A stretch of DNA of 64,000 bases. It comes from an uncultured Chlamydiaceae bacterium. Lineage in GTDB: Bacteria > Chlamydiota > Chlamydiia > Chlamydiales > JAAKFR01. The stretch covers positions 1,345,159 to 1,409,158 of the forward strand of contig CALNYX010000017.1 of the NCBI GenBank assembly GCA_942490925.1, given 5' to 3'. The position numbers and the translations under genes were made by a program. The notes beneath the pieces are model-generated. The model had not been told where the DNA came from and did not search any database. It worked only from the letters and a program-made list of their open reading frames with translations. Of this stretch, positions 33,407-46,856 are shown one piece after another. The number at the start of each line of letters is the position of its first letter. Position 1 is the first letter of the stretch.

Positions 33407-34270
33407 TCAGATGGCTAGAGCATTCATTTTATTGAGTAATAGGCAGCGAAGGTGATTTTCAACACTCTGACTATCAGATCTTTTTGAAAATAACCTAGAG
33501 CCAAAGAGCCTTTTCATTCTTGAGAAGGCTGATTCAACAAGAGCTCTTCGGCTATATCCCGTCATTTTACTCCACAAAGATTTAGCAACTTGATCCCCAC
33601 CTAATGCTCGGATGATGCGCAATGCATCATCCCGATCTGGATCTTTGTTTCGTATTCGACCATTCTTGGGTGGAGGGATGAGCCCTCGAGCACCTCTTTT
33701 TGTAATAGCCTCTCTAGAAGCTCTTCCATCATATGCACCATCAGCCAAAACAGTATCTACAGAATCACTCACTTGGCTGAGGAGAACCTCAGTCATTTGA
33801 CCATCGTGTACATGCCCTTGAGTTGTTGTTTGAGCTACAATTTCCCCAGTATCCGTATCGACTGCTATATGGATTTTTACCCATCGCCGTCGTTTTGACT
33901 TTCCATGAATTTTAACCTTCCATTCTCCCTCCCCATAGACTTTAACTCCAGAAGCATCGATAGCAACAACAGAAGCATTTGACTGGCTTAAAGCAGGGAG
34001 CTTCAATTTTCTAGCTCTCTTGCATATCAATGAGTAAGAAGGAATGGAATATTTTGTAAATGACTCAGCAAAGCCTTGCAGAGCCCTATAAGCCAAATGG
34101 TAATGAATCTTGACCATCATAAGCATGGTAATCAAAGAATCGGAGAAAATCTGAGGTCTGCCACCAGTTTTAGACTTTTTGTTTTTGAACAACTTAGGGT
34201 CGATGAGAAAAGTAATGCTTCCCCTTTGAACTAGCTGTTTGTTATATTGCTTCCAATTGCGTTTACGCAT
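33407..34270 (-). CDS. DDE transposase (IS4/IS5 type)
   Basis: 287 aa with an N-terminal MRKRNWKQYNKQLVQRGS. Catalytic-region blocks are AIDASGVKV, LADGAYD and ESAFSRMKRLFG. Confidence 0.85.
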   Translation of the reverse strand: MRKRNWKQYNKQLVQRGSITFLIDPKLFKNKKSKTGGRPQIFSDSLITMLMMVKIHYHLAYRALQGFAESFTKYSIPSYSLICKRARKLKLPALSQSNASVVAIDASGVKVYGEGEWKVKIHGKSKRRRWVKIHIAVDTDTGEIVAQTTTQGHVHDGQMTEVLLSQVSDSVDTVLADGAYDGRASREAITKRGARGLIPPPKNGRIRNKDPDRDDALRIIRALGGDQVAKSLWSKMTGYSRRALVESAFSRMKRLFGSRLFSKRSDSQSVENHLRCLLLNKMNALAI

Positions 34271-34549: not shown

Positions 34550-36445
34550 ATGTTTAAAGTTAATTATTTAGATGATATAGTCCCTCAAGTTAATTGTTCA
34601 GATGATACAGTTCCTCTTCTCTGTCCAGATGCTCAAAGAAGTGCTCAAGCAGAGAGTGTAACTTCTGTTTACGAACGCCATGTTCTAAGAAAGCTCTCTG
34701 GACATCAGAAGCCAATTATCAGTTGCTTAAAGATTAATGATGAAAGGGTAATGACCAGTTCAGGCGATGGCACTGTGCGCGTGTGGGACCTGAAAGGTCA
34801 TGAACCACCTACTATTCTGCGCATCAAGCAGGGGTGCCTTTTGTGGGCGCAGCTTCATGATGGTAGAATCCTTTCTTCAACCCCTTGTAGAAAACAACTC
34901 CATTGGTGGTCAATTGAGCCTTTTGAGCTGCAAAAGAGTTATGGGACCTTCGGGGCAGTAAGCGCAGCGATTGAGTTGACTGTTTTCCCAAATAGCGTTG
35001 CCTATGGGACTGAAATGGGAAAAATTGTCATTTTAAATTACGAAAGAGGGTGTGCACTAAAGGTTATTGATCAGGCTCACAAAGGACCAATTAATTGCCT
35101 CTACCAGCTTAGTGGCCATCAACTTCTTTCATCTGCGCGTGATGATAAGACTATCCATTGGGACATGAATGATTTTACACAGCTTTCAAAAAAAGGGGGG
35201 GTAGAGACGTTGTGTTGCCTAGAGATAAATGGATGCATCGTAACAGGTGGGAGTGATGATACTTTGCGTAGCGGCGATACAGTTGTTCAAAGCAATGATC
35301 GAATCTATGCTCTTCGAAAAATTGATGAGCGTTATTTTGCCTCAGCCTCAAATACTTCTAGAGTCCAAGTGTGGGATTTCCAGACGCTTGAACAAGTTGC
35401 CTGTTTAAAAGGGCATATTGGTACAGTATGTGGAGTTTTTAGCGTGAGCAATGGCTCAATTGCTTCATTTGGGTATGATGATCCCTTACTATATGTTTGG
35501 TCAGCGGCAAGTCAAGTTGACCCTTCCGGCTATGTTCTCCCTGAAAGTGATGCCAAAATAGCAGCGGTCATCACAAGTGGAGAACTTTTTCAAAATTTCT
35601 CATATGTTCAGTTGCTAGCCGGGGATAATGTAAAGCAGATTGTCAGTATAAACGCCCATCGAATGATTTGCTGTCTCAAATCAGGAGGATTTTGCTTTCT
35701 AGAAAGTCAAGGGGTGAGCAAGGTTTATTTAGGTGATAACACGATTCTACTCTCACCTTGGGATGATCAGCAAGCCGTAATTGGATTGGATGGGAAAGTC
35801 CTGGCTATATGGAACTTTGCACAGAAGAAGGCAGTACATCGTACTGTAGGGCCTAAGGAGAAAAGCATCAGTTGTGTTTTGCCTGTCAGTTCTGAAAACA
35901 TTGCTTTTGGCTGCACAGATGGAAGTGTTTGGGTTTGGAATCTCAATTCACAGAACTGCAGATTACTGAAAAAAAATCAACACGCAGGACCTGTAAGAAA
36001 ATTAGTGCTGGGGCTAAATGGGGCATTTATGTCTGTTGGAGAAGATAAGACCCTCTATTGGAGTCTAGGAAATGATCCTAAGGAGAAAACGGAGTGTTAT
36101 GCACTCTGTTTACCAAGTGGGAATGTGATCTACCGCCCTGAAAAATCAATGCTACTTTTTACAGCTCTTGGCCAGGCTTTACATACATTTAGTTACAAGG
36201 GAGGCGCTGTCGTAAAAGCGATTCCGCTTGCTGGTAGTGATAAGCTTTTTGCAACAGCTTCAGAAGATGGAACGATCTGTATTTGGAATATTGAAAAGAG
36301 AAATCCCCTGGCAACGCTGAGAGGGAATAATACTTTCCTCTCAGACCTTGTTCAAAGGTCTGATGGTTGCCTGATCGCTTGTGGTAATAAGGGAGTCGAT
36401 AGATTCACTTTTGCTCTTCCAAAGAAGAAGAGCTGGTTCAAATAA
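34550..36445 (+). CDS. WD40/beta-propeller repeat protein (eukaryote-like)
   Basis: 631 aa with recurrent WD-type units (GHQKPIISCL...SSGDGTVRVWDL; HKGPINCLYQL...SSARDDKTIHWDM; GHIGTVCGVF...; ASEDGTICIWNI). Confidence 0.8.
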   Translation: MFKVNYLDDIVPQVNCSDDTVPLLCPDAQRSAQAESVTSVYERHVLRKLSGHQKPIISCLKINDERVMTSSGDGTVRVWDLKGHEPPTILRIKQGCLLWAQLHDGRILSSTPCRKQLHWWSIEPFELQKSYGTFGAVSAAIELTVFPNSVAYGTEMGKIVILNYERGCALKVIDQAHKGPINCLYQLSGHQLLSSARDDKTIHWDMNDFTQLSKKGGVETLCCLEINGCIVTGGSDDTLRSGDTVVQSNDRIYALRKIDERYFASASNTSRVQVWDFQTLEQVACLKGHIGTVCGVFSVSNGSIASFGYDDPLLYVWSAASQVDPSGYVLPESDAKIAAVITSGELFQNFSYVQLLAGDNVKQIVSINAHRMICCLKSGGFCFLESQGVSKVYLGDNTILLSPWDDQQAVIGLDGKVLAIWNFAQKKAVHRTVGPKEKSISCVLPVSSENIAFGCTDGSVWVWNLNSQNCRLLKKNQHAGPVRKLVLGLNGAFMSVGEDKTLYWSLGNDPKEKTECYALCLPSGNVIYRPEKSMLLFTALGQALHTFSYKGGAVVKAIPLAGSDKLFATASEDGTICIWNIEKRNPLATLRGNNTFLSDLVQRSDGCLIACGNKGVDRFTFALPKKKSWFK

Positions 36446-38426: not shown

Positions 38427-38576
38427 TTGAATATCGAGATCTTTTGGTTTATCATATTTTCTTTGATCGGTGGCATCGCCGCACTTGTGGTCTTTCTCTA
38501 CTGTTTGAAGAAAGGACAGTTTGAGGATGTTGAAGAGACCAAGTACCAGGTGTTTCGCGATGATGAGGAGGATTAG
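38427..38576 (+). CDS. CcoS/FixS-like mini membrane protein (unannotated sORF)
   Basis: 49 aa from TTG 38427: NIEIFWFIIFSLIGGIAALVVFLYCLKKGQFEDVEETKYQVFRDDEED. One TM helix is followed by K-x-GQ-F/Y-[DE]-D and an acidic tail, as in CcoS. The stop TAG overlaps the Rieske GTG (TAGTG). Confidence 0.55.
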   Translation: MNIEIFWFIIFSLIGGIAALVVFLYCLKKGQFEDVEETKYQVFRDDEED

Positions 38577-39088
38577 TGCCAAAATATCGAAATAGTCTGC
38601 GCGTTGTTAAAGATACAAAAGAGCCAAAAGTTTCTAGACGTAAGTTTTTAGCGCTCATTGGTTGGGGCGCCGTAGCGGGTGTTGGTGGCATCTTGGCATC
38701 TGCAATGGGAGGCTTTCTCTATCCGAACGCTCTTAAGATTCCCCCAAGTGTTTTTTCCATTGGCAGGCCAGACGATGTTCTCTCTTCTGAAGGGCGCGTA
38801 TTTCTTCCCGGACAGAAAGTTTTTGTTGAAGTTGCTCGTGGTCGTGTGCGTTGTCTCACAGCGATTTGCACACACCTAGGTTGTACTGTGAATGGTGTTG
38901 AAACGGGTTTTAAATGTCCATGTCACGGTTCGACATACGATTTGGATGGAAAAAATACGGGCGGACCAGCTCCAAGCCCGCTTGTCTACTTCCAGGTCTA
39001 CAAAGGGGCCTCAGGAGAATTACTTGTTGATAAAAGTCGCGAAATCCATGTGCCAGCTGAATCATGGTACTCGCCAACTGCTGCGTGA
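38576..39088 (+). CDS. Rieske [2Fe-2S] protein with twin-arginine signal/anchor
   Basis: SRRKFLALIGWGAVAG (Tat motif plus TM) and the cluster boxes CTHLGC and CPCHGS. Confidence 0.9.
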   Translation: MPKYRNSLRVVKDTKEPKVSRRKFLALIGWGAVAGVGGILASAMGGFLYPNALKIPPSVFSIGRPDDVLSSEGRVFLPGQKVFVEVARGRVRCLTAICTHLGCTVNGVETGFKCPCHGSTYDLDGKNTGGPAPSPLVYFQVYKGASGELLVDKSREIHVPAESWYSPTAA

Positions 39089-39093
39089 AAAAG

Positions 39094-40422
39094 ATGGCCT
39101 CATTTAAAGGGAAACCAAAAAAAAGCTTTTGGCAAACACTCGAAACGCTTCCTGCTGATTTTGTGCGTTCGATTTTTCGTCATCGCTATCCAAGCAATGA
39201 TGTCGATCGCTCTGAGATCGTCTTCAAAAACTTTTTCCTCCACATCCATCCAGTCAAGTGTCACAAAACAGCTGTTGATCCTTTTCACACACTCGGACTT
39301 GGCGCCATAACGGCAAGTCTTTTCTTCTTGCTTGTCATCACAGGCGTTGTCTTGATGTTTTTCTACATTCCTGCTGTTGATCGCGCCTACACTATTCTTG
39401 TCGACTGGCTTGACACGACACCATTTGCGATGATGTGGCGCAACATTCATCGATGGAGCGCGCAGTTGATGGTGCTCTTTGTCTTCCTCCACATGAGTCG
39501 CGTCTTTTACATGGGGGCCTATAAGGGAGAGCGGAAATTCAATTGGATGATCGGTGTGATCTTGATGGTCATTACCCTTTTTCTCTCATTCACTGGCTAT
39601 CTTTTACCTTGGGATCAACTCGCTTTTTGGGCCATTACAGTCGGCTCTGAGATTGCGGGTTATGTTCCAGGGATTCCAGGGATGCAGTATAACATCAACA
39701 AACTGATGCTATTGGGGTCGACAACGGTGGGGCAAGATGCATTGATTCGCTTCTACGTTCTGCACGTGATGGTCCTACCCCTTCTTTTAGGAACCTTTTT
39801 AGGGGTCCATTTCTGGAGAATCCGAAAAGATGGAGGGTTAGCTCGTCCTCCAGATCGTTGGCGTCCAGATCCTTATAGAGTTGTGCAACGCTCTGACACC
39901 AAAGAGTCATTTGCCCCTGGTGTCCGTCGAACCTATGGCTTGATGGAGCTTGTCAGGGGTGCAAATCCCACAGTCGACAGAGGACCAGAGAATTACGTCT
40001 TTACCTGGCCAAACTTGCTCAGAGCAGAATTAATGGTCTTTTTGGGCACTGCTGCACTTGTTGTGCTCCTTTCGCTCTTTATTGATGCACCTCTAGAAGA
40101 GATCGCAAACCCTTCTAAACCAACAAATCCTGCAAAAGCACCCTGGTATTTCTTAGGGTTACAAGAGATGGTCTCTTACAATGCTTTTTGGGGAGGTGTG
40201 GGTATTCCGATGTTGATTATCATAGGGTTAGCGCTTATTCCTTATCTTGATCGGAATCCTCAAGGTGAAGGTGTTTGGTTCCACAAGAGCCGCTATTTCG
40301 GTATTTTTCTCTACACAACATTCATGACAATCCAAGGGCTTTTAGTCGTAGTTGGAGTCTTTTTCCGAGGCCCCAACTGGAGTTGGATTTGGCCATGGAC
40401 TGACAATTTTGCGAGGCATTAG
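39094..40422 (+). CDS. Cytochrome b (b6-like, with fused subunit-IV-like C-terminal part)
   Basis: The track ORF starts at 39064; ATG 39094 lies 6 nt after the Rieske stop. The helix B pair is IHRW...x13...LHMS and the helix D pair is LHVM...x14...VHFW (b6-type spacing). The APWYFLGLQE block is present. Confidence 0.9.
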   Translation: MASFKGKPKKSFWQTLETLPADFVRSIFRHRYPSNDVDRSEIVFKNFFLHIHPVKCHKTAVDPFHTLGLGAITASLFFLLVITGVVLMFFYIPAVDRAYTILVDWLDTTPFAMMWRNIHRWSAQLMVLFVFLHMSRVFYMGAYKGERKFNWMIGVILMVITLFLSFTGYLLPWDQLAFWAITVGSEIAGYVPGIPGMQYNINKLMLLGSTTVGQDALIRFYVLHVMVLPLLLGTFLGVHFWRIRKDGGLARPPDRWRPDPYRVVQRSDTKESFAPGVRRTYGLMELVRGANPTVDRGPENYVFTWPNLLRAELMVFLGTAALVVLLSLFIDAPLEEIANPSKPTNPAKAPWYFLGLQEMVSYNAFWGGVGIPMLIIIGLALIPYLDRNPQGEGVWFHKSRYFGIFLYTTFMTIQGLLVVVGVFFRGPNWSWIWPWTDNFARH

Positions 40423-43400
40423 TGCGCTATCAAACAGGTTATCAATACGCTTTGATCTTTTTTGCAGCGCTTGTCGTCTTTTCAATTGGTGTGTTTGTCT
40501 ACAAAGAGCTTTTTCCTGAGTATAAGACCTACCAGTATGCCTATAAAGAGCTTGAGGCACTACGTTCAAAGGTGACTGGAGAAAAACCGGCTCCATTTGC
40601 AACAGGGATTCGTCAGATCATGATTCCTGATCCTGACAATGGCCCTGAAGTGATTGATCGTTGCACGTCGTGTCACGTCGCAATGAACCTCCCTCATTTT
40701 TCTCCAAAGCGTCTGGCGCTTGATGTGAATGACAATCCCATTGTCGATGCTCAAGGTGATCCTGTACTGGAAGCTAACCCGAGTTACATCTGGACAGAGG
40801 TAGGCGAGAAGGCGAAGCATCTAGACACAAAAGAAATGCGCATGGCGCTGATGGCTCACCCGCTGATAGGAGCTGAAACACGACCTTTTGAATACCATTC
40901 AATGGAAGAGTATGGCTGTACAACTTGTCACAGTGGTAATGGACGTGCACTGGTTGCAAAACGTGCTCATGGACCTGTTTTCGACGAAACGTATGAACCG
41001 GCTGACCTGGGCAAGAAGCCGCAATTCTTAGAGATCGATGAGGAGCATGATCCACTTCTTGCGAGGATGTATAACAACAAGCCTGGTCATGATTTGGTCT
41101 TTCAGACAACGCCGCTTTTTGTTGGGCCGCTCATGACAGCAAAGTGTATGCAGTGTCACCAGTCGACTGCATCAGAGATGCAGGCAACGCTTGAGAAGAT
41201 TACAGATTTGGAAGCAAAGAAAAAAGAGCAGGTCGCACTTCTAGAAAAAGGGATTGAAGATGATAAATCAGCGCTAGCTGCATTGACGGATTTACAAGCG
41301 CGTTTGAAGAGTGAGGGATATGCCAAGACAATTGCTTGGTTGCAAGAGCAGCTGGGGGATTTTCGCCTCTCTTCGGAGCAACTCGATGCATACGCTGGGC
41401 AGCTGACATTCATGCAGACGAACAAAGAGAATCCAGATGAAGCGATTGTCAAACAGCTTGACATGCTTGGGAAGCATTCTATTTTGGCAAAAGAGCAGAT
41501 GTTGGCAGAAATTGAGCCAACGCTTGAAATGTTTGATCGAGCAAAGGCTCCTCTTTTTGTTGCAGGTCAAGATAAGCAAGTGGTAAGTAAGATGCGCTCA
41601 CAAGTTGACCGGTTAACGGTGAGCTACCAAAGAGGGCAAGAACTTTTTCTTTCTCAGGCCTGTTATGCTTGCCATCGCATTGCTGGCTTTTCACGCTCGA
41701 GTGTTGGTCCTGAGTTGACAACTGCAGGTTTGAGTTATCCCTGGTTTATCAAAGAGTCGATTGTATGGCCTCAGGCTGATTTGCCCTCTTCAACGATGCC
41801 GAATTTTCATCTCGATCATGAAGAGCTTGGCGATCTGATGGCATTTTTGATGGCACAAACAGGTAATCGCAAGGTGCAATCAGAAGTGGAACATCAAATC
41901 GCGCTCAACCAGTGGGAAGCTGGCGAGAAAATGGCGTGGGAAAAACCCGTTGCTCCGACGCAGATTCATGACTTGCGCGCTGGGATGATGATCTATGCAA
42001 CACAAGGGTGCGCCGCTTGTCACAAGTTGGAAGGGTTTGAATCTAATCTTGCAGTTGAAGATGAGCTCTGGTTCAAAAAGTTGTTTCCTGAACAGATTAC
42101 AGGATCAAAGTTAGCAGCAGTAGTTGAAGCACATGGCAAAGAGATCGAAGCGCAGTTTAAGCAGGTTCGCAAGAATGGGATCTTAGAAGAGATTGAGCTC
42201 GGCTATCCCGGATTGCTTATGGGGTACTACTCTAACTTCAAGTTTGCAGCGCGCAAAGGAAATGAAGACTTATTGAACAAGGTGTTGATGGGTTATATTC
42301 AAGCCTATGGACTTGGTCGTGACATTGCACCAGCGCTTAATTGGTCAGGAGTCTACCGAGATAATGCCTGGCTAATGGGACATTTTCACAATCCAAATGC
42401 TTATACTGCAAAATCGATCATGCCTGTCATGCCATTTGATGATACGAAATTCTACACACTCAACTACATGTTGCATAAGCTAGGGGAAAAAAATCGTGAT
42501 GCATTGCAACAAGTTTGGAAAAAAGATGGATTTGATCCGCCAGCAGCTTATACAGCGCTTTGCTCTTCCTGTCATGGCCCAAATCGCCAAGGAAATGGAC
42601 TTGTCTCTGAGTGGATCTACCCGATCCCTAAAAACCTGAGAGATCCTGTTTTCTTACGCAGTTTGACTAAAGAGCGTGCAATCGATTCGATCTGGCACGG
42701 CGTTTCTGGCACACCGATGCCGCCTTGGGGAGAGACTATCGAAGGGGAACCTGTACTCAACTATGCTCAGATTGTAAAGCTAGTCGACTGGTTGTATCAA
42801 GGATTGCCACCAATGCCGCGGCAAGCAAGTGAAGAAGAGAAGTGGAACTATACTCCAGAGATGGTTGTGCAAGAGATGGAAAAAGAGCGCGAGCTGTTGC
42901 AGCCCTCACACAAACCTGTCGATGTTGCAACCTACTTTGAAGTGCGCCCCAATCCGATTCCTGGCCCAGATAAAGAGCTCTATTTCATCAGAGAGCAGTT
43001 TTATACCCCTGAGAATTTGGAGGAGGGAAGAGAGTACTACGATGTGAACTGCGCAACTTGTCATGGAAAAGATGGTGGAGGAACAGGTTTACGCTCGACA
43101 TCCATGGTTGAAGCAAAACCTCGTATGCTCACCAATTTGCCTTGGATACGTTCACGCGATGATCTCCGTTTACTTCGCTCCATCAAATATGGTGTAGCTG
43201 GCACTGCGATGATCCCTTGGGGAGATCAGACAACCGCGGCTCAACGAATGGAACTGGTGATGTACATTCGAGAGCTGACACGTATGCAAATTCTGCGCGA
43301 TGACTTTGAAGAAGTGATCTATGATGTGTTCGATCGCCGAGAACTCGAACTGAATGAAGCACGCATTCCAAACTATGAAGCACTGGAGAAATTACAAACA

Positions 43401-43853
43401 GCCTATGATCAAGCTGTTTTAGAGGGTGCTCCGCTCACCATGAAAAAAGAGCTAGCTGAAAAGCGAGCAATTGATGCGCGCTACCTAGAAGAGATTGAGC
43501 TTCTTCAGCAAGAGCGTGAAATCTATAGAACACTCGGCTTGCAGCTCATTGGTAAGGAGCTTCCCTCGCCGATTATTGAGAGTTACTTTGAGTTTCTACA
43601 TGAGCGCAAAGGTGAGCCTCTTGCAGTGATTGGCTATCTTGATCAAGTGATCGCGGATTATCAGAAGCAGCTTGATGATCTCACCCAAGGACTCAGTGAT
43701 ATGGAAATTGTCCAGAATAAGCGTGTACAAAAAGTGATTACAGAGCAACGTGGCTACATCAACTTGCGCACGAAGCTAATGATGGGGGTTTCAAACGGTA
43801 AAAGACTGCAGGAAAAACAGCGAGACCTCTATAATGCCCTCCATGATGCATGA
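40422..43853 (+). CDS. Membrane-anchored heptahaem cytochrome c with CcoP-like dihaem module
   Basis: 1143 aa with an N-terminal TM helix. The seven CxxCH motifs start at residues 81, 166, 242, 413, 530, 714 and 877. Domains 6-7 (CSSCHGPNRQGNG...GTPMPPWG; CATCHGKDGGGTG...GTAMIPWG) look like FixP/CcoP. The GTG start overlaps the cyt b stop (TAGTG). Confidence 0.85.
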   Translation: MRYQTGYQYALIFFAALVVFSIGVFVYKELFPEYKTYQYAYKELEALRSKVTGEKPAPFATGIRQIMIPDPDNGPEVIDRCTSCHVAMNLPHFSPKRLALDVNDNPIVDAQGDPVLEANPSYIWTEVGEKAKHLDTKEMRMALMAHPLIGAETRPFEYHSMEEYGCTTCHSGNGRALVAKRAHGPVFDETYEPADLGKKPQFLEIDEEHDPLLARMYNNKPGHDLVFQTTPLFVGPLMTAKCMQCHQSTASEMQATLEKITDLEAKKKEQVALLEKGIEDDKSALAALTDLQARLKSEGYAKTIAWLQEQLGDFRLSSEQLDAYAGQLTFMQTNKENPDEAIVKQLDMLGKHSILAKEQMLAEIEPTLEMFDRAKAPLFVAGQDKQVVSKMRSQVDRLTVSYQRGQELFLSQACYACHRIAGFSRSSVGPELTTAGLSYPWFIKESIVWPQADLPSSTMPNFHLDHEELGDLMAFLMAQTGNRKVQSEVEHQIALNQWEAGEKMAWEKPVAPTQIHDLRAGMMIYATQGCAACHKLEGFESNLAVEDELWFKKLFPEQITGSKLAAVVEAHGKEIEAQFKQVRKNGILEEIELGYPGLLMGYYSNFKFAARKGNEDLLNKVLMGYIQAYGLGRDIAPALNWSGVYRDNAWLMGHFHNPNAYTAKSIMPVMPFDDTKFYTLNYMLHKLGEKNRDALQQVWKKDGFDPPAAYTALCSSCHGPNRQGNGLVSEWIYPIPKNLRDPVFLRSLTKERAIDSIWHGVSGTPMPPWGETIEGEPVLNYAQIVKLVDWLYQGLPPMPRQASEEEKWNYTPEMVVQEMEKERELLQPSHKPVDVATYFEVRPNPIPGPDKELYFIREQFYTPENLEEGREYYDVNCATCHGKDGGGTGLRSTSMVEAKPRMLTNLPWIRSRDDLRLLRSIKYGVAGTAMIPWGDQTTAAQRMELVMYIRELTRMQILRDDFEEVIYDVFDRRELELNEARIPNYEALEKLQTAYDQAVLEGAPLTMKKELAEKRAIDARYLEEIELLQQEREIYRTLGLQLIGKELPSPIIESYFEFLHERKGEPLAVIGYLDQVIADYQKQLDDLTQGLSDMEIVQNKRVQKVITEQRGYINLRTKLMMGVSNGKRLQEKQRDLYNALHDA

Positions 43854-45258: not shown

Positions 45259-46487
45259 AAAAACTTGAATGGTCAGCCATCTGGACAGTCATCGGTGTGA
45301 TCATTCTGTTTGCTTCTGCTATTTTTGTGACCCTATGGGCTCCAAGGCATATCGATCCCAGTTGGCAACAGGCCTCTAGCACTTATCAAGTGCAGATGTA
45401 TGAAGTTTCAGATCCTAACGTCTATATCAGCACCTCGAATCCAGGCGGCTGGGGATTACAATATGTCTATCACTTGCAAAGCGGCCAAACATTGCATGCA
45501 TTTCAAGAGAGTGAAACAGTGCGTATTTTGGCTTCTAAGGAACTTGAGCCTTATGTAACGCGCCTTGGAGATCCCGACTTAAAGTTGACTTCCAAAGTCC
45601 TTTTACTCCGTCAACCCGCTTCACAAGCGGATGAAAAATCTTTTCGCAAAAAGCTGGAAGGTGATTTGCATTACGAAGTTCTTGAGCTCTATGACCCGCA
45701 AAAAGAGCAGGCATTTGCGGTGACTGAAACAGATGGTGTGATTGAAAACTGGGCAGAGGGAAATTTCAAGCTTCTAGGAGCTCAACCCTCCTACTACACA
45801 GAGCATGGTGTCATCTATATCAACAATCCCAAAGAGTATCGCGTCACCAAAACTGTTTTCCAAGGCGACCCTTACTGGCTCTATGATGAGAATGGAGAGC
45901 CGATTACAGATCTGCCTGAATTGAAGGGGGGAAGACAGGGCTTCTTATCTCGCCAAAGCCTCATCAAGATGGGTGAAGACATCTATCGGGTAGAAGGGTG
46001 TTGGTATTGCCATACAGATCAGACGCGCACACTCATTCAAGATACCGTTCTCAATGGAGCTCCAGACTATCCTGCGCCACCTTCTGCAGCCAATGAATAC
46101 ATTTATCAGCGCGTTACATTTCCAGGGACAAGACGGATTGGGCCTGACATTTCTCGTGTTGGGATTAAAAGACCACACAGGGACTGGCACCAATCACATT
46201 TTTGGTCACCCAAATCAGAGAGTAAAGGGAGTGTGATGCCAGCTTTTGGACATTTCTTTGATAATGACCCGACTGGAACAGCGCGTAACCCTTACGGCGT
46301 GCCGAATTACAAGTTTGAGGCAATTTTCCAATATCTGATGACAAAAGGAACGCGCATGTTGCCTCCAACGCAAGCCTGGTGGCTTGGTAAGGATCCAATT
46401 CAGACAATCGACATTATTGAGGGAAAACCTCTAAAAAATGCGCACATGGAATCTAGCATCGATCTTTCCAATAAGGTTCCAAAATGA
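45255..46487 (+). CDS. ccoO: CcoO-like monohaem subunit with approximately 190-aa insertion
   Basis: N-terminal TM helix, then YRVEGCWYCHTDQTR, and RIGPDISRVGIKRPHRDWHQSHFWSPKSESKGSVMPAF (compare the canonical GPDLxRVGxK...W...H...P...S.MP). ATGA overlaps occur at both ends. Confidence 0.8.
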   Translation: MKKLEWSAIWTVIGVIILFASAIFVTLWAPRHIDPSWQQASSTYQVQMYEVSDPNVYISTSNPGGWGLQYVYHLQSGQTLHAFQESETVRILASKELEPYVTRLGDPDLKLTSKVLLLRQPASQADEKSFRKKLEGDLHYEVLELYDPQKEQAFAVTETDGVIENWAEGNFKLLGAQPSYYTEHGVIYINNPKEYRVTKTVFQGDPYWLYDENGEPITDLPELKGGRQGFLSRQSLIKMGEDIYRVEGCWYCHTDQTRTLIQDTVLNGAPDYPAPPSAANEYIYQRVTFPGTRRIGPDISRVGIKRPHRDWHQSHFWSPKSESKGSVMPAFGHFFDNDPTGTARNPYGVPNYKFEAIFQYLMTKGTRMLPPTQAWWLGKDPIQTIDIIEGKPLKNAHMESSIDLSNKVPK

Positions 46488-46672
46488 TTGATAGTACAGG
46501 AGCTTATGGATTTTATTTGCATTATGCCTGCCTTTTTCTTTTTCTAATTGGTGCTCTGAGCGTATTTATTTATTTGGCATGTAAAGGGCGACTTGATATG
46601 AATGAAGATCCAAAATATCATGTCTTTGATGAGGAGCTAGAGGATGAGCGAGGAAATTCCTCCGACAGATGA
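46484..46672 (+). CDS. Mini membrane protein in CcoQ position, paralogous to the CcoS-like sORF
   Basis: 62 aa with one TM helix, then YLACKGRLDMNEDPKYHVFDEELED. This parallels YCLKKGQFEDVEETKYQVFRDDEED at 38427-38576. Confidence 0.5.
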   Translation: MIDSTGAYGFYLHYACLFLFLIGALSVFIYLACKGRLDMNEDPKYHVFDEELEDERGNSSDR

Positions 46673-46856
46673 GAAAAAAATCCCCCTATTTTTGTACATC
46701 ACTTATGTCGTGGTGTTGTTATGGGGACTGTGGGCTTTCTATGCCTACTGGAATGGCTCTCAAGGTTTTTTAGGGCATGGTTATTGGCGCCCCTTGCAAA
46801 AAGCCGCAGCAACTACGTATCCATTTGAGAAAAAGAGTCCACATCTACACTCTTAA
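46644..46856 (+). CDS. Mini membrane protein, possibly a stand-alone FixP/CcoP N-terminal anchor
   Basis: 70 aa. EKKIPLFLYITYVVVLLWGLWAFYAYW resembles the NPLPxWW...F..T...A..Y anchor region of CcoP. It overlaps the previous ORF by 29 nt. Confidence 0.4.
   Translation: MSEEIPPTDEKKIPLFLYITYVVVLLWGLWAFYAYWNGSQGFLGHGYWRPLQKAAATTYPFEKKSPHLHS

Follow-up and report, generated by a model that had tools for sequence, protein, structure and literature searches.

The stretch of DNA analysed here (the window) comprises 64 kb of contig CALNYX010000017.1 from an uncultured Chlamydiaceae bacterium and contains a gene for a cytochrome c with seven haem-binding motifs, hereafter the heptahaem cytochrome. 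The gene is located between those for a Rieske protein and a cytochrome b on one side and those for the cbb3 oxidase subunits CcoN and CcoO on the other. Its product is a genuine, strongly conserved membrane cytochrome of an environmental chlamydia. We propose that it represents the membrane-anchored c-subunit of the Rieske/cytochrome b complex, extended such that it also acts as electron-entry cytochrome of the downstream cbb3 oxidase. We give this reading a probability of roughly 70%. The anatomy of the protein, its conservation, its operon, the homologies of its domains and the occurrence of both a split and a compact form are direct observations. A summary of the features is given in Table 1.

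The gene starts with GTG, which overlaps the stop codon of the cytochrome b gene (TAGTG), and runs without an internal stop. Its N-terminus agrees with the consensus of the orthologues. All 14 cysteines of the protein fall within the seven CxxCH motifs, while shuffled sequences of the same composition contain 0.003 such motifs on average and one at most. Candidates for the distal ligands of haems 1-3 (bis-His) are His146, His159 and His183, and Met459, Met667, Met766 and Met930 are those of the other four haems (His/Met), all of them invariant in 48-77 orthologues. An AlphaFold2 model based on an alignment of 48 sequences reached a predicted local distance difference test score (pLDDT) of 77 and a predicted template modelling score of 0.74, the class-I-like domains being modelled confidently. 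A preliminary description of this DNA had already read seven haem motifs in a protein of 1143 amino acids (aa) and a single transmembrane (TM) anchor ahead of haems 1-3. Both are borne out by the intact reading frame and by its only hydrophobic segment. Six of the motif positions given there are correct; for the fourth, given as 413, the true start is residue 414. The strings quoted in that description (GPELTTAG...MPNF; GRDIAPALNW...HFHNPNAYTAKSIMPVMPF; CxxCHGxxxxGxG...GT.MP.WG, twice) are all present in the translation. A coiled-coil-like spacer of ~160 aa after haem 3 and a haem-free, charged, helical stretch of ~200 aa at the C-terminus had been proposed as well and are recovered as long helices in the model (Table 1).

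A scan of one genome per species revealed 117 genomes encoding a relative, and 80 loci were kept. These were assigned to Chlamydiota by record label and the shared operon; about 12 of them have just 'uncultured bacterium' as label, and the labels of two name other phyla. The loci span Parachlamydiaceae, Waddliaceae, Protochlamydia, a Simkania-labelled isolate and many lineages of metagenome-assembled genomes (MAGs). Among the matches listed, the ~120 homologues all belong to Chlamydiota. The gene order GltD-like flavoprotein, CcoS, Rieske, cytochrome b, heptahaem cytochrome, CcoN, CcoO, sm1, sm2 (the latter two being small open reading frames, ORFs) is constant wherever the contig is long enough (~80 loci) and is shared by the complete genome of Waddlia chondrophila. 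In locus L010 a stop codon lies between the cytochrome b and heptahaem genes. Each of the 77 complete orthologues is encoded by one ORF (898-1450 aa) and has the seven motifs in collinear arrangement, save for haem 4 of Waddlia. In both W. chondrophila assemblies (L001, L002) this motif reads CYACL in place of CYACH; hence the proximal histidine is gone and both cysteines are retained.

The orthologues also bear on the possibility, raised in the preliminary description, that an assembly error or frameshift artificially joins separate cytochrome genes. A metagenomic locus introduced below (L085) does encode haems 1-5 and a monohaem domain resembling those around haems 6 and 7 in separate genes, which speaks for such an artefact. 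However, the 77 complete orthologues stem from independent assemblies, and a protein from an independent read-assembly dataset (P0001) is 100% identical to that of the window, the next-best sequenced relative being 59-62% identical. Moreover, start and stop of the gene are translationally coupled to the neighbouring genes. The comparison of orthologues rules out a frameshift fusion, and we regard the chance of an artefact as practically negligible.

From ccoS to sm2, eight genes abut or overlap: ccoS, the Rieske gene, the cytochrome b gene, the heptahaem gene, ccoN, ccoO, sm1 and sm2. The stop codon of ccoS overlaps the Rieske start, and ccoN overlaps the heptahaem gene by 20 nucleotides (nt). 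The gene for the GltD-like flavoprotein is located 61 nt upstream of ccoS. The heptahaem gene precedes ccoN and does not follow ccoO/ccoQ as the last gene of ccoNO(Q)P clusters does. No ccoP gene and no gene for a c1/f-type or soluble cytochrome c is found in the cluster. The position of the gene between Rieske/cytochrome b and ccoN/ccoO, with no ccoP gene in the cluster, supports the earlier proposal of a bc exit fused to a cbb3 entry.

The CcoN protein aligns over its full length with CcoN of P. stutzeri, and the haem and CuB histidines as well as the cross-link tyrosine are all matched. The CcoO protein is unusually built. It consists of a TM helix, a periplasmic insertion of ~200 aa with no family match and, at residues 236-338, a monohaem FixO domain. 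Some 60 chlamydial loci keep this long form, and the CcoO proteins of the outgroup loci measure 181-194 aa. One may ask whether CcoN and CcoO are in fact a nitric-oxide reductase of the NorB/NorC type, in which case the heptahaem cytochrome would feed the reduction of NO. NorC and CcoO are homologous, the profile of haem domain 4 also matches a NorC-like chain, and CcoN scores 276 bits, below the curated ccoN cut-off of 583. On the other hand, the top matches in the PDB are CcoN throughout (E 1e-63 to 7e-50), NorB gives no match at E<=1e-5, and the oxidase ligands named above align. In addition, maturation factors of cbb3 oxidases accompany the genes: CcoS is present in the window, FixS and a CcoI-like Cu-ATPase occur in all three outgroup clusters, L089 encodes a full FixG, and L088 a CcoG-like Fe-S protein. 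With CcoN-only PDB matches and the oxidase ligands kept, we rejected the nitric-oxide reductase as hardly credible.

Table 1. Features of the heptahaem gene and its cluster. Positions refer to the window, residues to the heptahaem cytochrome.
Feature	Position	Strand	Basis and remarks
GltD-like NAD(P)-binding Fe-S flavoprotein, 616 aa	36515..38365	+	Pfam Fer4_20 + Pyr_redox_2 + 2x Fer4; NCBIfam PRK12771
CcoS/FixS cbb3 maturation protein, 49 aa, TTG start	38427..38576	+	PF03597 E 2.5e-10; TIGR00847 above cut-off
Rieske iron-sulfur protein, 170 aa, Tat-like signal	38576..39088	+	PF00355; PetC-type NCBIfam matches
Long cytochrome b, 452 aa, fusion of a b6 part and a subunit-IV-like part	39064..40422	+	PF00033/PF13631; ExtP + ExtQ matches
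Heptahaem cytochrome c gene	40422..43853	+	Intact ORF, 1143 aa, seven CxxCH
Single N-terminal TM helix / signal anchor (~residues 8-27)	40443..40502	+	Sole Kyte-Doolittle window >1.5; AlphaFold2 helix 4-29
Trihaem head (residues 29-249; CTSCH 81, CTTCH 166, CMQCH 242)	40506..41168	+	Invariant His146, His159, His183 in alignments
Helical charged spacer (residues 250-395)	41169..41606	+	AlphaFold2 helices 249-398; 23% mean identity
Haem domain 4 (residues 396-484; CYACH 414, Met459), class-I CcoO-type	41607..41873	+	70% conserved; profile + hhalign
Haem domain 5 (residues 505-700; CAACH 530, Met667), CcoO-type	41934..42521	+	Profile + hhalign
Haem domain 6 (residues 701-800; CSSCH 714, Met766), class-I PF13442 type	42522..42821	+	Profile vs PDB; paralogue of domain 7
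Haem domain 7 (residues 856-958; CATCH 877, Met930), class-I PF13442 type	42987..43295	+	Pfam PF13442, best stretch 865-949
Haem-free helical tail (residues 957-1143)	43290..43850	+	AlphaFold2 helices 939-1142, pLDDT ~90; 33% charged; 23% mean identity
CcoN, catalytic cbb3 subunit, 474 aa	43834..45258	+	TIGR00780 E 7e-82; 3mk7_A E 1e-63
Long CcoO, 410 aa	45255..46487	+	PF02433 E 7e-22
Small ORF sm1, 62 aa, 1 TM	46484..46672	+	BLASTP to CcoS of the cluster: 45% over 33 aa, E 5e-8
Small ORF sm2, 70 aa, 1 TM, closes cluster	46644..46856	+	Kept in chlamydial loci

The trihaem head has no relative in the PDB by either single-sequence or profile searches, and in Pfam it yields only sub-threshold matches to c7 and paired-CxxCH families. 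The protein has no match to the c1 or cytochrome f families in Pfam or NCBIfam; its anchor is N-terminal and it carries seven haems, unlike these canonical single-haem subunits with their C-terminal TM anchor.

Haem domains 4 and 5 (D4, D5) are related to CcoO, in line with what had been noted from the bare sequence. The profile of D4 has CcoO among its top matches in the PDB (8.6e-5) and also matches the cytochrome c domain of caa3 subunit II, SoxX and the NorC-like chain mentioned above. For D5, CcoO chains are the top matches (7.7e-5), covering the haem motif and the GPxL..W..H..P..S.MP segment. An hhalign comparison with CcoO from the same operons gave a probability of 93% (E 3e-7) for D4 and of 96% (E 1e-9) for D5. 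Both domains stay below the cut-offs of the CcoO/FixO families (PF02433, 22.6 vs 29.6 bits; TIGR00781, 20.5 vs 200 bits), and no TM helix precedes either of them in a hydrophobicity scan. In D5, a chlamydia-specific insertion of ~90 aa (residues 541-628) splits the haem motif from the GxxIAPxLxW...H...P...S.MP segment. This insertion is absent from four relatives (P0319, P0288, P0299 and P0274).

Haem domains 6 and 7 (D6, D7) are paralogous, with an hhalign probability of 98.6%. For both, the best match of the profile in the PDB is 6h5l_B, i.e. Kustc0457 of Kuenenia (4e-13 for D6, 2e-16 for D7). CcoP follows with its domains in the same order, its first haem domain matching D6 (7e-5) and its second matching D7 (5e-9). 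Similar values were obtained for ActE (9e-5 and 8e-9), and D7 also matches QcrC (~3e-6). Among the curated NCBIfam models, those for a CcoO-cytochrome c fusion and for ccoP are at the top for D7. Two tandem class-I haem c domains with distal methionine, as expected of CcoP, are present, given that C714/M766 and C877/M930 are invariant and collinear with CcoP. Against the QcrC model NF050122, whose cut-off is 200 bits, the protein scores 36.3 bits in a match of 29 residues surrounding the haem 7 motif.

To trace the origin of this arrangement, 1.84 billion representative sequences were searched with the trihaem head. We found 185 matches at E<=1e-3, with a sharp step after ~65 chlamydial clusters. 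The remote matches come from Nitrospirota, Poribacteria, Planctomycetota, Acidobacteria, delta-proteobacterial MAGs and Kiritimatiellota. All non-chlamydial head-bearing genes that were examined follow Rieske and cytochrome b genes. A trihaem head combined with the CcoO-like core is found in this position in loci of Planctomycetota, Nitrospirota, Poribacteria, Acidobacteria and delta-proteobacteria, some of them without a nearby oxidase. Because the same pentahaem core follows Rieske/cytochrome b in other phyla, in part with no oxidase nearby, D4 and D5 are, judging by these comparisons, not taken from the adjacent cbb3 oxidase but part of an older pentahaem core associated with the bc complex.

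Three of the seven non-chlamydial relatives examined are directly followed by ccoN, while the other four differ in haem count. The first is L085, from a metagenome, with the order GltD-like, FixS, Rieske, cytochrome b, subunit IV, a pentahaem cytochrome (P0274), a monohaem cytochrome, ccoN, a 181-aa ccoO and a CcoI-like ATPase. P0274 has 366 aa and consists of a TM helix, the trihaem head and two CcoO-like domains; it aligns with haems 1-5 of the heptahaem cytochrome. The separate monohaem protein is membrane-anchored, has 163 aa and is 39% identical to D7 and 35% to D6. Among curated models, those for the CcoO-cytochrome c fusion (PRK14486) and ccoP come closest to it, and it resembles the C-domain of CcoP. 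Six haems are thus distributed over two genes in L085, and cytochrome b and subunit IV are separate genes as well. The second locus (L088, Pontiella desulfatans) shows the order GltD-like, FixS, Rieske, cytochrome b, a 584-aa heptahaem cytochrome, ccoN, a 194-aa ccoO, CcoG-like, DsbD_2 and CcoI. Its heptahaem protein is collinear with that of the window in all seven motifs and in the distal ligands, so the fused form is not peculiar to the genome of the window. The third (L089) carries a compact fused heptahaem gene of the same type, with the GltD-like gene shifted downstream of ccoO.

The remaining relatives are combined with other partners or with none. In L084 (Nitrospirota) and L087 (Poribacteria), a GltD-like gene, Rieske and cytochrome b are followed by a multihaem gene (encoding 891 aa or 777 aa) and then by a molybdopterin oxidoreductase set. 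These multihaem proteins have the same head plus extra class-I domains. The arrangement suggests a periplasmic enzyme of the Nar/Nxr type that would be wired to the Rieske/cytochrome b complex. The regions concerned are 10734-13397 in L084 and 9362-15794 in L087; the oxidoreductase is accompanied by Fe-S subunits, and L087 also contains EB_dh and NarJ-like genes. L083, L086 and L090 show the same core with no oxidase adjacent. The GltD-like gene is syntenic with Rieske/cytochrome b in all loci with enough flank except L083. Together with the placement of the multihaem gene after Rieske and cytochrome b, its N-terminal TM helix and its several CxxCH motifs, this co-occurrence fits the c-subunits of the Kuenenia type (cytochrome b subfamily G of Dibrova et al.). 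Taken together, haems 1-5 represent an old, portable c-subunit of this class of Rieske/cytochrome b complexes, to which class-I domains are appended according to the partner enzyme.

With respect to the idea of a bc exit fused to a cbb3 entry, these relatives largely agree with the preliminary description. It had proposed to look for relatives in which the fusion is split, and L085 with its pentahaem and separate monohaem gene ahead of ccoNO is such a case. The details need revision, as the CcoO-like domains belong to the ancestral core associated with the bc complex and D6-D7 are no members of the CcoP family.

The proposed path of electrons would begin with the oxidation of quinol at cytochrome b and the Rieske protein. 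From the Rieske cluster, electrons would enter the membrane-proximal bis-His trihaem head (haems 1-3), move on to the CcoO-type His/Met domains (haems 4-5) and from there to the duplicated class-I His/Met domains (haems 6-7). The latter would take the usual role of CcoP and reduce the haem of the separate CcoO, which would pass the electrons to haem b and then to haem b3-CuB of CcoN, where O2 would be reduced. A c1/f-type cytochrome, a soluble cytochrome c and CcoP would be unnecessary on this path. As none of these carriers is needed, a fixed and obligate bc-cbb3 supercomplex would be implied. What we infer here is the sequence in which the haems pass on electrons, the supercomplex as a physical entity and the function of the helical segments.

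Several observations weigh against this proposal. D6-D7 are closer to Kustc0457 than to CcoP and about as similar to ActE. A Foldseek search with the predicted structure gave 6h5l_B as best match of D6-D7 (E 1e-4, TM-score 0.58 over the whole chain), and no CcoP chain is among the top 50 matches. The protein scores 50.4 bits against the ccoP model TIGR00782, far below the cut-off of 179.95, with residues 860-953 aligned to model positions 197-282. The FixP_N anchor (PF14715) has no Pfam match in the protein, whose sole TM helix stands ahead of the trihaem head. Where relatives contain several PF13442-type domains, their genes adjoin those of molybdopterin enzymes and not of oxidases, so these domains are generic wire modules. 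Furthermore, AlphaFold2 models the trihaem head poorly (pLDDT 30-50), such that no haem geometry can be read from it. The window covers 64 kb of the genome, and a ccoP or soluble cytochrome c gene may be located elsewhere. We conclude from the comparisons that D6-D7 are CcoP-like in their proposed role and by distant homology, but no members of the CcoP family. The resemblance to FixP/CcoP that had been suggested earlier therefore stands as a distant match with the same domain order, while the failed ccoP cut-off, the missing FixP_N and the closer Kustc0457 speak against membership.

A simpler arrangement would have the heptahaem cytochrome act as c-subunit of the Rieske/cytochrome b complex only and reduce diffusible or other periplasmic acceptors. 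CcoNO would then be merely co-transcribed and fed by collision, with neither a supercomplex nor a CcoP-like docking. The occurrence of the same core without adjacent oxidase (L083, L086, L090) or beside molybdopterin enzymes (L084, L087) fits this, as does the fact that D6-D7 are not CcoP members. However, the heptahaem gene shares 20 nt with ccoN, and the two keep a fixed order in ~80 chlamydial loci, in Pontiella and in L089. The examined non-chlamydial relatives directly preceding ccoN are exactly the heptahaem cytochromes of L088 and L089 and the pentahaem plus monohaem pair of L085. Moreover, the cluster contains no soluble cytochrome c gene. We therefore consider feeding by collision unlikely, though it deserves attention, and prefer the extended c-subunit that delivers electrons to cbb3 directly.

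The steady presence of the GltD-like gene raises the question whether respiration is the main task at all. Quinol oxidation might be bifurcated, with one electron passing downhill through the seven haems to cbb3 and O2, thereby paying for NAD(P)+ to be reduced in an uphill step by the GltD-like flavoprotein; or else this protein might feed electrons from NAD(P)H into the complex. Besides Chlamydiota, five other phyla (Kiritimatiellota, Nitrospirota, Poribacteria, Acidobacteria and delta-proteobacterial loci) have the gene in synteny with Rieske/cytochrome b, and so does even the rearranged L089. The cytochrome b proteins of Waddlia and Parachlamydia have been placed with those of Kuenenia complexes 1 and 2 (PMC3509893), and for Kuenenia a bifurcation proposal and AlphaFold3 models exist (PMC12954380). 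Against this stand the gap of 61 nt between the flavoprotein gene and ccoS in the window and the fact that the hypothesis is unproven even in Kuenenia. A main task other than respiration appears very doubtful to us. That the cluster encodes one physical machine consisting of a cytoplasmic NAD(P)-linked Fe-S flavoprotein, Rieske/cytochrome b, heptahaem cytochrome and cbb3 oxidase, which would be an O2-driven counterpart of the proposed anammox bifurcating complexes or, within one supercomplex, a complete chain from NAD(P)H to O2, is a slightly less doubtful but still quite improbable idea.

The haem domains and the segments between them evolve at different pace. The mean identity among orthologues is 56-70% in the haem domains and ~23% in spacer and tail. 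The spacer is variable and dispensable, because nine chlamydial lineages (L065, L067, L070, L072, L074, L076, L078, L079, L081) have haems 3 and 4 separated by just 28-51 residues, with proteins as short as 898-1190 aa. It is also missing from the compact homologues outside Chlamydiota in the alignment. The tail (residues 957-1143) has no Pfam match and is absent from the compact heptahaem cytochromes. By sequence comparison, the chlamydial protein is a heptahaem cytochrome of the compact type plus ~560 aa of fast-evolving helical segments. Spacer, D5 insertion, D6-D7 linker and tail are chlamydia-specific helical additions which probably serve as scaffold or clamp rather than in a redox role. 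A precedent for structural helices is given by Kustd1485, whose long helices wrap the Kuenenia complex in AlphaFold3 models (PMC12954380).

Among the closest known systems is the compact heptahaem cytochrome of Pontiella desulfatans (PDESU_00656, P0319) with its relatives of ~570-620 aa, all uncharacterised. The Pontiella protein has the collinear haem motifs, the distal ligands and the operon in common with that of the window, down to a small ORF after ccoO. It is half the size and ~31% identical, with neither spacer nor D5 insertion, long D6-D7 linker or tail, and the CcoO encoded next to it has the usual length (194 aa). The genome paper lists just 'ccoNOP' without comment (PMC7356697). The split form of L085 has the cluster of GltD-like, FixS, Rieske, cytochrome b, ccoN and ccoO in common with the window but differs by its two genes and six haems. 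CcoP/FixP (TIGR00782; 3mk7_C, 6xkw_p, 8snh_G) likewise comprises two class-I His/Met domains, the first resembling D6 and the second D7. It differs by having a FixP_N anchor, whereas the heptahaem cytochrome is a seven-haem protein encoded upstream of ccoN and scores 50 vs 180 bits. Since the cluster has no ccoP gene, D6-D7 are placed to do the job of CcoP.

In the anammox bacterium Kuenenia, Kuste4573 and Kustd1485 are TM-anchored multihaem proteins that likewise replace c1/f and are accompanied by a GltD-like Fe-S flavoprotein (PMC12954380); this likeness is drawn from published descriptions. Genes for long cytochrome b proteins of clade G' were described in 'large conserved operons' of unknown function, and cytochrome b of subfamily G co-occurs with NAD(P)-binding Fe-S proteins (PMC5600118). 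The partner of the Kuenenia complexes is an HAO-like protein or unknown, in contrast to cbb3 for the heptahaem cytochrome. Kustc0457 (6h5l_B), the partner of the HAO-like Kustc0458, is the best match to D6-D7 both in structure and in sequence, but it is soluble, has two haems and belongs to a different pathway. QcrC (6hwh, 7e1v), the dihaem cytochrome cc in the bcc-aa3 supercomplex of actinobacteria, follows the same logic of a complex III c-subunit that reaches the oxidase without soluble carrier. In addition to its weak match to D7 it was found by Foldseek, but it has two haems, an aa3 partner and no homology over the head. Tethered class-I cytochromes link complex III and cbb3 in the bc1-cbb3 supercomplexes of Rhodobacter capsulatus (6xkx, with an engineered CcoP-cy fusion) and Pseudomonas aeruginosa (8smr/8snh) (PMC7876108, PMC10556555). 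The engineered fusion (PMC7876108) mimics what the heptahaem gene shows as a natural arrangement. Unlike the system described here, these supercomplexes keep c1 and CcoP separate and use a bc1-type cytochrome b. ActE, the monohaem subunit of alternative complex III (6f0k_E, 6lod_E), has a class-I domain like D6 and D7, and alternative complex III also forms supercomplexes with oxidases, but lacks a Rieske/cytochrome b core. A multihaem c-subunit of complex III that would hard-wire an oxidase is hence a known kind of system. In the open-access literature we found no description of this heptahaem family or of its split, compact and expanded series; older subscription papers may differ.

A reconstruction of the chlamydial respiratory chain comprises Nqr, Sdh, cytochrome bd, cbb3 (CcoN/O) and ATP synthase, with no complex III and no route from quinol to cbb3 (PMC9816063). 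The heptahaem cytochrome and its Rieske/cytochrome b neighbours would supply this lacking route, and a complex III-IV unit that is hard-wired is thereby suggested for environmental chlamydiae. The split, compact and expanded forms are consistent with a modular evolution of a haem wire, in which class-I domains would have joined a pentahaem core first as separate proteins and then by fusion, followed in Chlamydiota by a doubling in size through helical segments. Chlamydial CcoO gained its periplasmic insertion of ~200 aa in parallel. The constant GltD-like NAD(P) oxidoreductase as companion ties these oxidase-linked complexes to the unresolved Rieske/cytochrome b complexes of anammox bacteria. 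If a single NAD(P)-linked machine were true, the culturable Waddlia, Parachlamydia, Protochlamydia and Pontiella would offer a tractable system for the open question in Kuenenia.

As to the other genes of the cluster, the match of the Rieske protein to the twin-arginine translocation (Tat) signal TIGR01409 is weak (16.5 bits vs a cut-off of 16.7). The cytochrome b of the window reads TLGLG at the site of the b6-type CxGG motif for haem cn. Because of this replacement, haem cn is probably absent. The ORF sm1 is a paralogue of CcoS, such that the cluster contains two CcoS/FixS-like genes, and it is kept in most chlamydial loci. The ORF sm2 weakly matches a 47-aa ORF after ccoO in L085. Neither of the two has a family match in Pfam or NCBIfam; sm2 might serve cbb3 as a small subunit, either CcoQ-like or in place of the CcoP anchor. 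A scan for promoters and terminators over 34.2-47.2 kb gave nothing usefully above shuffled sequences.

The further neighbours are typical of chlamydiae (CT_584-like, UPF0137, Trp/Tyr permeases, Dus), which, together with close homologues that all belong to Chlamydiota, marks the window as DNA of an environmental chlamydia. Between uvrB and the GltD-like gene, a DDE transposase of the insertion-sequence type (33407-34270, minus strand) and a 631-aa WD40-repeat protein (34550-36445, plus strand) are encoded. The Waddlia locus has other genes at this position, and the WD40 gene is found in no other locus examined.

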